Source: a virus (Duplodnaviria; Heunggongvirae; Uroviricota; Caudoviricetes). Taken from it: DNA of 4,318 nt. The translations under genes were made by a program, and so were the position numbers. The DNA is taken from IMG/VR virus record IMGVR_UViG_2698536395_000002; one strand, given 5' to 3'. Below are positions 140-4,191 of the stretch, one piece after another (position 1 is the first letter of the stretch; each line of letters starts with the position of its first letter). The notes beneath the pieces were generated by a model. The model searched no databases and had not been told where the DNA came from. It worked only from the letters and a program-made list of their open reading frames with translations.

Positions 140-370
140 CCTCAGAGTGATTGCGTCACCGCCTTTAATTCTGTCTATCAGTGATTTGCGTCCGCTGTCT
201 GAGAGTAACTCAATATTGGCCTGTATTGCTTCAGTGATTGCTATCCTCCTGTCTCGGCCTAATCCAAACTCTTTACCCGTCCTTGGGTCCCTGTAGCAGT
301 AATATCCATTGTTTCTTATATAAAGGTTAGGGGGTAAATCCCGGCGCTCATGACTTCGCCTTCTTCCCAT
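98..370 (-). pseudogene. int: Integrase truncated by IS insertion: N-terminal arm-binding domain of a lambda/HK022-type tyrosine integrase (about 77 native codons) fused to 13 IS-derived codons
   Basis: ORF begins MGRRRSHERRDLPPNLYIRNNGYYCYRDPRTGKEFGLGRDRRIAITEAIQANIEL, which matches the lambda Int N-terminus as recalled. The next stretch, LSDSGRKSLIDRIKGGDAITL, resembles HK022-type Int. Homology is then lost (RCTGNSGRYHLFFF*) where the reading frame enters the IS end. Full-length Int is about 356 aa; this ORF is 90 aa. The 5' end overlaps xis by 23 bp, as in lambda. Confidence 0.9.
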
Positions 371-566
371 TTCTGATCCTCTTCAAAAGGCTACCTGTTA
401 CTGGTCGATTTAAGTCAACCTTTACCGCTGATTCGTGGAACAGATACTCTCTGCCATCCTTAACCGGAGGAGGGAATATCCTGCATTCGCGCACCCATCG
501 ACGAACTGTTTCAAGGCTTCTTGGGCGTCGCTGGCGAGCGTTCCACTCCTGAAGTGTCAAGTACAT
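348..566 (-). CDS. xis: Excisionase Xis (72 aa), apparently intact
   Basis: Translation MYLTLQEWNARQRRPRSLETVRRWVRECRIFPPPVKDGREYLFHESAVKVDLNRPVTGSLLKRIRNGKKAKS is essentially the lambda Xis sequence as recalled. GGAG lies 8 nt upstream of the ATG; the 3' end overlaps the int start. Confidence 0.95.
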   Translation of the reverse strand: MYLTLQEWNARQRRPRSLETVRRWVRECRIFPPPVKDGREYLFHESAVKVDLNRPVTGSLLKRIRNGKKAKS

Positions 567-592
567 CGCAAAGTCTCCGCAATTACACGCAA
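555..592 (-). promoter_or_regulatory. pI-like promoter region with a cII-type activator box (TTGC-N6-TTGC) just upstream of and overlapping the xis start
   Basis: On the minus strand, TTGCGTGTAATTGC (plus 579-592) lies immediately 5' of the xis ATG. This matches the direct-repeat TTGC-N6-TTGC cII recognition motif known from lambda pI/pRE. Position relative to xis is as in lambda. Confidence 0.55.
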
Positions 593-615
593 TAAAAAAC
601 CGCCATCAGGCGGCT
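591..615 (-). terminator. Intrinsic (rho-independent) terminator for leftward transcription, overlapping the stop codon of the orf55-like gene
   Basis: Minus-strand RNA would read GCCGCC-UGAU-GGCGG followed by UUUUUUAUU. Stem is at plus 600-604 / 609-613, loop 605-608 (contains the TGA stop), T-tract at 592-599. Confidence 0.6.
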
Positions 616-773
616 TGGTGTTCTTTCAGTTCTTCAATTCGAATATTGGTTACGTCTGCATGTGCTATCTGCGCCCATATCATCCAGTGGTCATAGCAGT
701 CGTTGATGTCCTCTGCTTCGATAACTCTGTTGAATGGTTCTCCATTCAATTCACCTGTGACTCGGAAGTGCAT
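606..773 (-). CDS. Small hypothetical protein, 55 aa; homologue of the lambda orf between xis and ea8.5 (orf55-like)
   Basis: ATG at 771-773; protein MHFRVTGELNGEPFNRVIEAEDINDCYDHWMIWAQIAHADVTNIRIEELKEHQAA. The six-frame track extends it to a TTG at 788, but the ATG start matches the lambda orf as recalled. Stop TGA sits in the terminator loop. Confidence 0.75.
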   Translation of the reverse strand: MHFRVTGELNGEPFNRVIEAEDINDCYDHWMIWAQIAHADVTNIRIEELKEHQAA

Positions 774-808
774 TTGTGATTTCCCCAAAAGATGCTTGAG
801 TGCGCTTC

Positions 809-1108
809 TTATTCGATTCGCACACCTGGTATTTCGCCTTTTGAAATGGCTAAGTCATAAATTTGCGCAGCACTATACCCATCTCGCATCCATGAATCTA
901 AGGCGCGAATAGCCTCGCTACGCTTTTTATCTTCTCTTTCATTTTTGATATCAACGAGGACATCAACGCAATTAAGGCATATGTGGATTTTGTCCTTACA
1001 TTCGATCATGGCAGCTTTACCATGATTTCCGCCACACAGTGAGCATAAATCTTCAGGGTCTGGCTGGTATTTCTGTAACGTTAAAGGGTTGAATGTTGAA
1101 CAGGCCAT
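809..1108 (-). CDS. Hypothetical zinc-ribbon protein (about 99 aa) with CxxC-x11-C-x6-CxxC motif; function unknown
   Basis: ORF open from 1120; preferred start is the ATG at 1106-1108, preceded by GGAGATGATT (SD, 6-nt spacer). Cys pairs C22/C25 and C44/C47 plus C37/H42 (numbered from that start) suggest a treble-clef or zinc-ribbon fold. Stop TAA at 809-811. Confidence 0.7.
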   Translation of the reverse strand: MACSTFNPLTLQKYQPDPEDLCSLCGGNHGKAAMIECKDKIHICLNCVDVLVDIKNEREDKKRSEAIRALDSWMRDGYSAAQIYDLAISKGEIPGVRIE

Positions 1109-1120
1109 AATCATCTCCAT

Positions 1121-1145
1121 AAAACAAAACTCGCCGTAGCGAGTT
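1121..1145 (-). terminator. Putative intrinsic terminator (or antitermination-sensitive pause hairpin) in the leftward operon
   Basis: Minus-strand RNA: GAACUCGC-UACG-GCGAGUU followed by UUGUUUU. Stem plus 1128-1134 / 1139-1145, T-tract 1121-1127. It sits in a 120-bp non-coding gap downstream of the 92-aa gene. Confidence 0.5.
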
Positions 1146-1265
1146 CAGATAAAAGAAATCCCCGTCAGTGCGAGGATTGTTATTGTCTTTTCTTCGTGCA
1201 TTTGTCGCACTTTCGGCACCATCCAGATAGGCACATCCGTCCGCAATTAACACATATAGGCCACA

Positions 1266-2938: not shown

Positions 2939-3607
2939 TCACTCTCCTTTGATGCGAATGCCAGTAGCGCGGATAGATTTCCATTGTTTCCACATTCGGT
3001 TGAAGTCTGTGCCTGATAAGGTTGCGTTACGGTATCCAGTTTCGGTACGCAATCCTTCAAGCGTCGATTTGGAGATACAAATTGAATGCATTACCCATGA
3101 TTCAAACAAATCACGCTCCCGGGCTTCGCAACTTTGCTTACTCATCTCTTCGATACGTTCAGCCATCGCAGCACACTCTTCAAAGTTGCTTAATGCTTTT
3201 CGCTCCCATTCGGCGCATTGTTTTCCAAGCTCTGCAATCAGCTTGTCTTTGCCTTCCAGCTCAACACGCAGTTTCCCTACCGTTAGCGCAATATCCTCGT
3301 TCTCCTGATCGCGGCGTTTGATGTATTGCTGGTTTCTTTCCAGTTCATCCAGTAATGCCAGCACAGTAGCCGGATTGGCTGCGGCGATGAATTCAGCATT
3401 GGCCTGCTGTTCCATTTGGAAATCTTCATCGAAACCGCTTTCTGGATGTGCTCCTTCAATTCTGCAAATGGGAAGATATCCAACAACTTCACGATGAATT
3501 AACGCATCATCACAATCAAATCGGCTCTCTCCATATTCGAGCGACCATACACCACACGTTGCTTTTTCTGCCTTGGCACGCAGTGCCTGATAGTCAATCA
3601 GGCTCAC
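2939..3607 (-). CDS. ea22: Ea22-like protein (222 aa), a mosaic variant with a conserved coiled-coil core
   Basis: GTG start at 3605-3607 preceded by AAAGGAGG and overlapping the upstream TGA (GTGA). N-terminus MSLIDYQALRAKAEKA..., core LLDELERNQQYIKRRDQENEDIALTVGKLRVELE and C-terminal IRIKGE* all match lambda Ea22 as recalled (which also starts at GTG). The segments between are divergent. Confidence 0.85.
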   Translation of the reverse strand: MSLIDYQALRAKAEKATCGVWSLEYGESRFDCDDALIHREVVGYLPICRIEGAHPESGFDEDFQMEQQANAEFIAAANPATVLALLDELERNQQYIKRRDQENEDIALTVGKLRVELEGKDKLIAELGKQCAEWERKALSNFEECAAMAERIEEMSKQSCEARERDLFESWVMHSICISKSTLEGLRTETGYRNATLSGTDFNRMWKQWKSIRATGIRIKGE

Positions 3608-4191
3608 TGGTTGCCTCCTTTGCGAATCTGTTCCGCCCATTCTTCAAGGGATTTCTCCGCATATTCACCAGACAGGCCATCAATCGGATGCGGTTCATTA
3701 GCCAACTCTTCTTTCGCTGACAGAATCATGCGCGTAACATCGAAAACTTCACGTAAAGACTTATTGATAAATCCGTGGTTGAAAGCAGCAGCAAGACGGC
3801 TTGCGGCATAGTTAATACCCTCGTTGCGTGCTTCCGCACGTACTTCAGCCAGGAAAGCATCGGTGGCTGGGGTTTTGATTTCGTTAAGCGCATCACTGAA
3901 TAAACCACGCTCCATACCTAGCTCTGCTTCGTAATCGGCATCGAATGCAGCGTCTTTGCAGAACTTCTTCATCCCCGCACTCTCCGCTGCCAGCGCCGCG
4001 CACTTGGCCTCAAGGTTATCAATCGTGATTCCAGCAGAACGACACTCCCGCAACGCCGTTTCCAGTTTTGATTCAAGTTCACCGAACTTACGGACAAGAT
4101 ATTCAGCGTTTGTTTCGTTAACCTTTAGATCTCGTGGGATGCATTTACCTTTCAGAAAACCATCCATCTCAATTAGTGACATTTGTTTCAT
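3604..4191 (-). CDS. Hypothetical protein (about 195 aa), largely alpha-helical by composition, no recognisable domain
   Basis: ORF open to a GTG at 4209; preferred start is ATG at 4189-4191 (GGAG/GGGA upstream), giving MKQMSLIEMDGFLKGK.... Stop TGA at 3604-3606 overlaps the Ea22-like GTG start. Start codon choice is uncertain. Confidence 0.7.
   Translation of the reverse strand: MKQMSLIEMDGFLKGKCIPRDLKVNETNAEYLVRKFGELESKLETALRECRSAGITIDNLEAKCAALAAESAGMKKFCKDAAFDADYEAELGMERGLFSDALNEIKTPATDAFLAEVRAEARNEGINYAASRLAAAFNHGFINKSLREVFDVTRMILSAKEELANEPHPIDGLSGEYAEKSLEEWAEQIRKGGNQ

Follow-up and report, generated by a model that had tools for sequence, protein, structure and literature searches.

Morons and junction ('boundary') sequences have reportedly been described from the mosaic genomes of lambdoid phages (Juhala et al. 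2000; Clark et al. 2001). A moron is an extra gene separating two elements that lie side by side in a related phage; it has its own promoter and terminator and a deviant base composition, and it is expressed from the repressed prophage. The zinc-binding domain (ZBD) of ClpX is the closest described system at the protein level. It docks lambda O, MuA and the adaptors SspB and RssB, and ClpXP determines how stable lambda O and host regulators are. ClpX-type fingers are also present in proteins unrelated to proteolysis. The 4,318 nucleotides analyzed here (the window) are lambdoid prophage DNA and contain the early-left (exo-xis) region at its xis-proximal end. A first-pass annotation had proposed that a 99-aa zinc gene was inserted here as a moron at the start codon of the orf55-like gene. 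Our analysis corrects the idea of a recent moron. We read positions 774–1108 with moderate confidence as one accessory-gene cassette of the variable xis-proximal exo-xis end and not as a newly inserted moron. The 99-aa gene (L0063 of 933W, gp19 of Sf6) is an already catalogued but uncharacterised lambdoid accessory gene, absent from lambda. What is new is that its zinc finger appears from its sequence to be related to the ClpX substrate-docking domain.

The window shares 99.9% identity with H19J, and the Stx1a phage 11KH263 is identical across 560–1270. From right to left, the minus strand carries an Ead/Ea22-like gene, DUF551, DUF4752, a leader, the zinc gene, a spacer, orf55, a terminator, xis and int. 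The leader is a 74-bp intergenic segment (1110–1183, minus strand) supported by blastn, a terminator scan and an RNA fold z-score of −2.65. By blastn it is common to lambda, where it abuts orf55, and to 933W, Sf6, Kapi1 and HK140. Within it, two terminator-like hairpins stand in tandem (1178–1157 and 1146–1127), and each has a T-run behind it. Since homology to lambda, 933W and Sf6 stops at 1183/1184, this point is a mosaic breakpoint. Next to the leader, GGAGATGATT (1109–1118, minus strand) provides the Shine-Dalgarno GGAG (1118–1115) and 6 nt ahead of the ATG at 1108. This is the same element as lambda GGAGATGATAA, which precedes orf55. The zinc gene (809–1108, minus strand) belongs to the 933W L0063/Sf6 gp19/H19J orf312 family (PHROG 3680) and runs from ATG 1108–1106 through 99 codons to TAA 811–809. 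Older records (933W L0063, H19J orf312, Sf6 gene 19, Kapi1_003) start it 12 nt further upstream at ATG 1120, giving 103 aa. We favor ATG 1108 as the probable start because of RefSeq WP_001368678.1 (300 bp), the PHROG profile (positions 1–99 of 99) and the spacing of the GGAG, and translation would begin from GGAG 1118–1115. The spacer (774–808, minus strand) contains a GGGGA Shine-Dalgarno-like element for orf55. The orf55 homologue (606–773, minus strand; lambdap35, PHROG 676) extends from ATG 773–771 to TGA 608–606 and encodes 55 aa with 96% identity to the lambda protein. Its stop codon is overlapped by an intrinsic terminator hairpin found by the terminator scan (597–616, minus strand) and followed by TTTTTTATT; the equivalent site is annotated as a rho-independent terminator in the HK140 record. 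The next gene downstream is xis (348–566, minus strand), encoding a lambda-type excisionase (Pfam Exc, E 3.9e-41). Rfam gave chance-level matches only across 500–1300, and neither the zinc protein nor orf55 had a match in PADLOC.

The window was compared with lambda (NC_001416) by blastn. Window 165–790 matched int-xis-orf55 at 93.8% identity, and window 1110–1183 matched the 74 bp abutting the lambda orf55 ATG (94.6%, E 1e-28). These two segments are contiguous in lambda, and the window has a net gain of 334 bp (about 774–1108). The extra bases follow the hairpin leader, which ends in GGAGATGAT, and precede the start codon of the orf55 homologue; they comprise the 99-aa gene and the 35-nt spacer. 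The lambda junction reads ...GTTTTGTTTTATGGAGATGATAA followed by ATGCACTTCCGAG, or in its longer form ...CTCGCTACGGCGGGTTTTGTTTTATGGAGATGATAA-ATGCACTTCCGAG (orf55). At the zinc-gene end of the window, ...GTTTTGTTTTATGGAGATGATT is followed by ATGGCC..., with the longer form ...CTCGCTACGGCGAGTTTTGTTTTATGGAGATGATT-ATGGCCTGT. At the orf55 end, ...GGGGAAATCACAA is followed by ATGCACTTCCGAG, 35 nt past the zinc-gene TAA. The lambda RBS-ATG sequence given in the first-pass annotation was correct, and the shared motif is present in NC_001416. Pairwise alignment with lambda gave 334 bp for the extra block that had been estimated at about 330 bp. The CxxC...CxxC gene starting at 1108 was also confirmed (ORF 1108–809, cysteines C22, C25, C44 and C47), as was the leader after its TAA (808–774, exactly 35 nt). 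The orf55-like ATG placed at 771 occupies 773–771, with 771 as its low-coordinate end. The claim of a precise cassette insertion agrees with the comparison in that there is a clean 334-bp presence/absence with ends at the RBS/ATG boundary; the event itself may have been an insertion or a deletion. The zinc gene does use the RBS that serves orf55 in lambda, and may or may not have captured it.

The zinc block sits between the leader and the orf55 ATG, which are adjacent in lambda, as would be the case for a moron. No sigma-70-like promoter was found by a consensus scan of 540–1300 (0 sites vs 1.7 in shuffles). Behind the zinc gene, 774–808 contained no terminator-like site or significant structure (fold z-score 0.07). 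The GC content of the gene was 0.42, showing no anomaly vs the leader (0.41) and orf55 (0.46). The zinc gene resembles lambdoid morons and junction sequences as an extra gene whose breakpoints coincide with gene boundaries and fall within short conserved junctions, but it differs from morons in having no promoter, terminator or compositional signature of its own. With all three absent, its designation as a moron was not upheld. Terminator-like hairpins in 540–1300 numbered three on the coding strand and five on both strands, vs 0.4 expected. Because the zinc gene is co-oriented in the leftward early operon behind two hairpins, its expression should depend on antiterminated read-through. Judging from its position, it would be transcribed, like xis and int, only within the N-antiterminated pL transcript that passes the two upstream hairpin terminators.

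Ten junctions from the window, lambda, PA28 and Enterobacter and Klebsiella prophages were aligned. A GC hairpin, TTTTTT(A)TT, a GGAGA-type RBS and an ATG recurred among them. The 35-nt spacer looks like a degenerate, hairpin-less copy of this layout. Terminator-like hairpins inside an operon presumably need antitermination for read-through, and the junction hairpins may be recombination hot spots for cassette exchange. Cassettes would be gained, lost or swapped at the recurring hairpin/T-run/RBS/ATG junctions, and exchange there would place breakpoints exactly at start codons. The repeated junction with TTTTTTATT between the GC hairpin and the GGAGA-type RBS was seen in the window (1127–1178 and 597–616) and at three other loci (L006 3330–3366; L010 2985–3023 and 3280–3319; L011 1365–1396). 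The Sf6 record annotates 'boundary sequences' ('bsq' features) in this region.

Homologues of orf55 were found with other neighbors in PA28, P27 and Proteus phage Brookers. No deep linkage of the zinc gene to orf55 was detected, as the downstream genes in Enterobacter and Klebsiella and the gene upstream of orf55 in the Proteus phage are unrelated. Since each gene is found with unrelated neighbors elsewhere, the zinc gene and orf55 appear to be independent cassettes shuffling at conserved junctions. The orf55 gene is itself mosaic at its 5' end. PA28 (L011 1160–1215) and Stx2-phage 86 have a different leader and the first five codons MKFKF, not MHFRV. P27 (L012 1150–1359) has the N-terminal third of orf55 swapped for unrelated sequence. 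The locus is ordinary lambdoid mosaicism and agrees with the classical picture.

One slot exists here in three allelic states, whose breakpoints fall in the repeated hairpin/RBS junctions; as mosaicism this is a neat but ordinary case. The composite state (leader, zinc gene, spacer, orf55) is found in the window, H19J and Kapi1. Lambda has the second state, leader and orf55. In the third, represented by 933W and Sf6, the leader and zinc gene are followed by an orf55 remnant. Junction-specific queries against phage records and 5,426 complete E. coli genomes detected the composite junction in 3 phage records and 115 genomes, the lambda-type junction in 61 and 1,942, and the 933W-type junction in at least 48 and 205, respectively. 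The lambda-type junction is by far the commonest; the counts do not show the zinc gene to be ancestral at this position in most lambdoid phages, a point in favor of the first-pass annotation. At least two backbones carry the composite: one has lambda-type xis/int, and the other, seen in P22-like phages, has a torI-type xis. The zinc gene occupies the same slot in 933W (L0063), VT2-Sakai (H0073), Sf6 (gene 19), IME10, Kapi1 (Kapi1_003) and H19J (orf312). Its protein matched PHROG 3680 ('unknown function') over its full length (positions 1–99 of 99, E 2.2e-69). By tblastn the zinc gene was present in 53 phage records and orf55 in 86, and about 320 of the 5,426 complete E. coli genomes carried the zinc gene.

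The zinc gene of the window is 96–100% identical in nucleotide sequence to those of 933W, VT2-Sakai, Sf6, H19J and Kapi1; the leader is shared too, and in each case the gene lies shortly before the terminator near xis. In 933W, Sf6 and IME10, however, orf55 is a 17-codon remnant, whereas the window has an intact orf55 and the 35-nt spacer. These three phages lack a 149-bp segment (658–806, minus strand) that starts 2 bp past the zinc-gene stop codon and consists of the spacer and the first 38 orf55 codons. They retain 591–657, the last 17 orf55 codons and the terminator. Their junction reads ...ATCGAATAAGA followed by CGTAACCAATATTCGAATTGAAG..., with the zinc-gene stop directly before the orf55 remnant. 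In the window, an AGA microhomology flanks the 149 bp on both sides. The remnant after the zinc-gene stop and the AGA on either side show the 933W/Sf6 state to be a 149-bp deletion derivative of the window-type arrangement. That 933W carries 'a portion of orf55' had been observed independently (PMC8614690). The dead 17-codon 3' remnant and terminator were located at 1501–1567 in 933W (L002), at 1507–1578 in Sf6 (L005) and in IME10 (L015).

The 99-aa protein was examined by profile searches and structure prediction, which point to a ClpX-type zinc domain. The AlphaFold model was of medium confidence (pLDDT 75.7). It has a zinc knuckle and β-hairpin at about 20–47, a long, highly charged helix at 45–75 and a short C-terminal helix. 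All of 22 sequences compared, with identities as low as 24%, have the predicted zinc ligands C22, C25, C44 and C47, and the C-terminal motif IYD..I..G.IP..RI is conserved. Searched alone, the window protein had as its top matches the ClpX ZBD in PDB sequences (E 0.05), the N-terminus of ClpX models in NCBIfam (E 0.002) and zf-C4_ClpX in Pfam (PF06689, E 0.014), the last at 15.7 bits, below the 27-bit gathering threshold. Four full-length relatives exceeded this threshold (P0043, 28.4 bits; P0046, located in L019, 43.3; P0047, 31.7; P0052, 29.5). When 1.84 billion representative proteins were searched exhaustively with a profile, only 31 clusters reached E ≤ 0.001. The nearer clusters comprised full-length relatives that share the architecture and measure about 100 aa, and the remote tail consisted of CSFCGK...ICxxC ClpX-type fingers, some in tandem. 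A profile including distant relatives (A3) matched only ClpX in the PDB, with 1ovx_A best (E 3.6e-7). Foldseek against the PDB gave no significant match, with the ClpX ZBD at rank 7, and no relative of the C-terminal half was detectable. From these sequence comparisons, we conclude that the N-terminal half is in all likelihood a divergent ClpX-type zinc-binding domain.

The phage protein and the ClpX ZBD (PF06689; PDB 1OVX, 2DS5) share the CxxC-18-CxxC spacing and the CS(L/F)CG and ICxxCVD(L/V) motifs. In ClpX, the hydrophobic-patch residues F16 and I46 lie within the lambda-O/adaptor binding site (PMC7804408); they align with the hydrophobic L24 and I54 of the phage protein. Unlike ClpX, the phage protein has no AAA+ module, and its single-sequence score is under the Pfam threshold. 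Against the ClpX unfoldase model TIGR00382, its 99 aa matched positions 5–56 of about 415 at 16–17 bits, vs cut-offs of about 360–370. A further difference is a family-specific YQPDPED motif at the N-terminus of the phage protein, together with a helical C-terminal half bearing IYD..I..GKIP.IRI. Lambda ea8.5 (PF20735) is similar as a small zinc-binding accessory protein of the exo-xis region. Its gene is located just upstream of the 74-bp leader and the zinc gene on the other side, so the two are not allelic. Homology to Ea8.5 was rejected, with an hhalign probability of 4.5% and no PF20735 match in Pfam.

More distant homologues were found in Enterobacter and Klebsiella prophages, where a single variable small gene separates them from xis/int downstream. 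That gene encodes a 54-aa protein, a 72-aa protein or an 80-aa lipoprotein-like protein, in each case unrelated to orf55. The Klebsiella homologue is 59% identical and has the same hairpin/T-run/ATGGAG leader before the zinc gene. A survey of other loci also identified homologues of 26% and 34% identity in Hafnia phage Meifeng (L014 1492–1794) and in L019 (3001–3306), respectively. Both are located deeper within early regions, away from xis, and their C-terminal motif differs (LYDAGYRK). Several database proteins are chimeric. In P0039 (257 aa), some 190 aa of unrelated N-terminal sequence precede the last two-thirds of the zinc protein, so that the first CxxC is missing; in P0035, a different N-terminus is fused to the C-terminal tail of the zinc protein. 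The entire 99-aa protein is present at 100% identity within P0002 (146 aa, from a contig of 983 bp), for which a precomputed Pfam match to PF02061 also exists. These could be recombinants or assembly artefacts.

The difference between the window and lambda is a single 334-bp event, and the present comparison does not distinguish insertion here from deletion in lambda. We consider deletion in the lambda lineage slightly likelier. It would have occurred by one unequal crossover between two similar RBS regions. The leader ...TTTTATGGAGATGATTATG and the spacer ...TTTTGGGGAAATCACAAATG are identical at 12 of 18 positions by our count. Lambda GGAGATGAT-AAATG reads as a hybrid of the two, in which the leader would supply GGAGATGAT and the spacer AAATG, as expected from an unequal crossover that deleted the zinc gene. 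The composite is also necessarily older than the 933W/Sf6 state. Insertion is a credible second choice, in which a lambda-type ancestor (leader-RBS-orf55) gained about 334 bp, the zinc ORF and a 35-nt trailer with a new orf55 RBS, and the zinc gene took the resident RBS. The lambda-type arrangement is the majority (61 phage records and 1,942 E. coli genomes vs 3 and 115), its junction being about 17 times commoner than the composite and present in many phage types. Distant phages such as Proteus phage Brookers have orf55 homologues without the zinc gene. The spacer has the zinc gene upstream in 13 of 13 IMG/VR contigs; as an independent orf55 leader it was not found in these 13 matches, and the GTDB representative genomes gave no matches. 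Since the spacer never occurs without the zinc gene and the lambda type is the majority, insertion of gene and spacer together fits these data equally well. However, insertion needs two exact illegitimate joints vs one crossover for deletion, and the Klebsiella outgroup has leader and zinc gene together. The hybrid appearance of the lambda RBS, the age of the composite relative to the 933W and Sf6 state and the missing moron signature also count against it. Per-segment identities among lambda, 933W, Sf6, Kapi1 and HK140 did not discriminate the direction of the event.

The main lead is that a gene of 933W, VT2-Sakai, other Shiga-toxin phages and Sf6 appears to encode a free-standing ClpX-type docking domain. 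A search of the literature on L0063, zf-C4_ClpX and phage ClpX-type fingers found nothing on this protein. The ClpX ZBD serves to dock proteins and does not bind DNA (PMC7804408). As a stand-alone ClpX-type zinc-binding domain with a helical tail, the phage protein would act through protein-protein contacts as a ClpX N-domain mimic. It could titrate ZBD ligands (lambda-O-type replication proteins, SspB, RssB) or, alternatively, pair with the ClpX ZBD itself, and either route would modulate ClpXP proteolysis in lytic growth. That a free ZBD-like protein, made early, modulates ClpXP is a tentative proposal that may well be wrong. The fuller version is of low probability. Here, the L0063/gp19 family would be a ClpX N-domain decoy, expressed early from pL, that sequesters O-type initiators, SspB or RssB or heterodimerises, stabilizing ClpXP-labile phage or host proteins. 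CIII acts on FtsH; if the decoy idea is true, lambdoid phages would have alongside it an inhibitor or modulator aimed at ClpX, the first of its kind. Because ClpXP controls the stability of lambda O and host regulators, a docking-domain mimic could affect phage replication, induction and toxin output. The idea is directly testable by standard ClpXP degradation assays.

Domain homology is no proof of action on ClpXP, since ClpX-type fingers are also found outside proteolysis. The protein could be unrelated to ClpXP, its treble-clef finger and long helix forming a nucleic-acid-binding or transcription-modulating factor or a scaffold for another host target, and we regard this as a possible, though not the leading, explanation. 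Several neighboring exo-xis proteins have been modelled as transcription regulators (PMC8614690), such roles having been proposed for Orf73/TraR-like on RNA polymerase, Ea8.5 and Orf61. The charge of helix 45–75 and the absence of a detectable relative for the C-terminal half are consistent with a role of this kind. It is opposed by the ClpX ZBD ranking first in sequence and fold libraries (rank 7 for Foldseek vs the PDB), by the absence of any detected DNA-binding family and by the docking of proteins, not DNA, by the ClpX ZBD. A decaying or non-functional remnant with fortuitous CxxC pairs is very improbable. No function is recorded and, among the database members, P0006, P0035 and P0039 are truncated or chimeric, but full-length homologues range from 98% to 24% identity with four invariant cysteines and a conserved C-terminal motif, and the gene is retained in hundreds of prophages.

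At its left end, the window contains a terminus of IS600 (IS3-family, 1 to about 156), including the 3' end of the transposase ORF. IS600 cuts the lambda/H19J-type int after about 75 codons (98–370) and leaves xis intact. With int truncated, the prophage cannot make integrase. The exact IS600/int junction was fully covered in no complete E. coli genome of the collection, with a best coverage of 91%. Upstream of the leader, the ORFs for DUF4752, DUF551, a 205-aa protein and the Ead/Ea22-like proteins overlap by 4–7 nt at their stop and start codons (1544–1547, 2128–2131 and 3604–3610), which suggests translational coupling. In contrast to these overlapping genes, the cassettes closer to xis are separated by hairpins.
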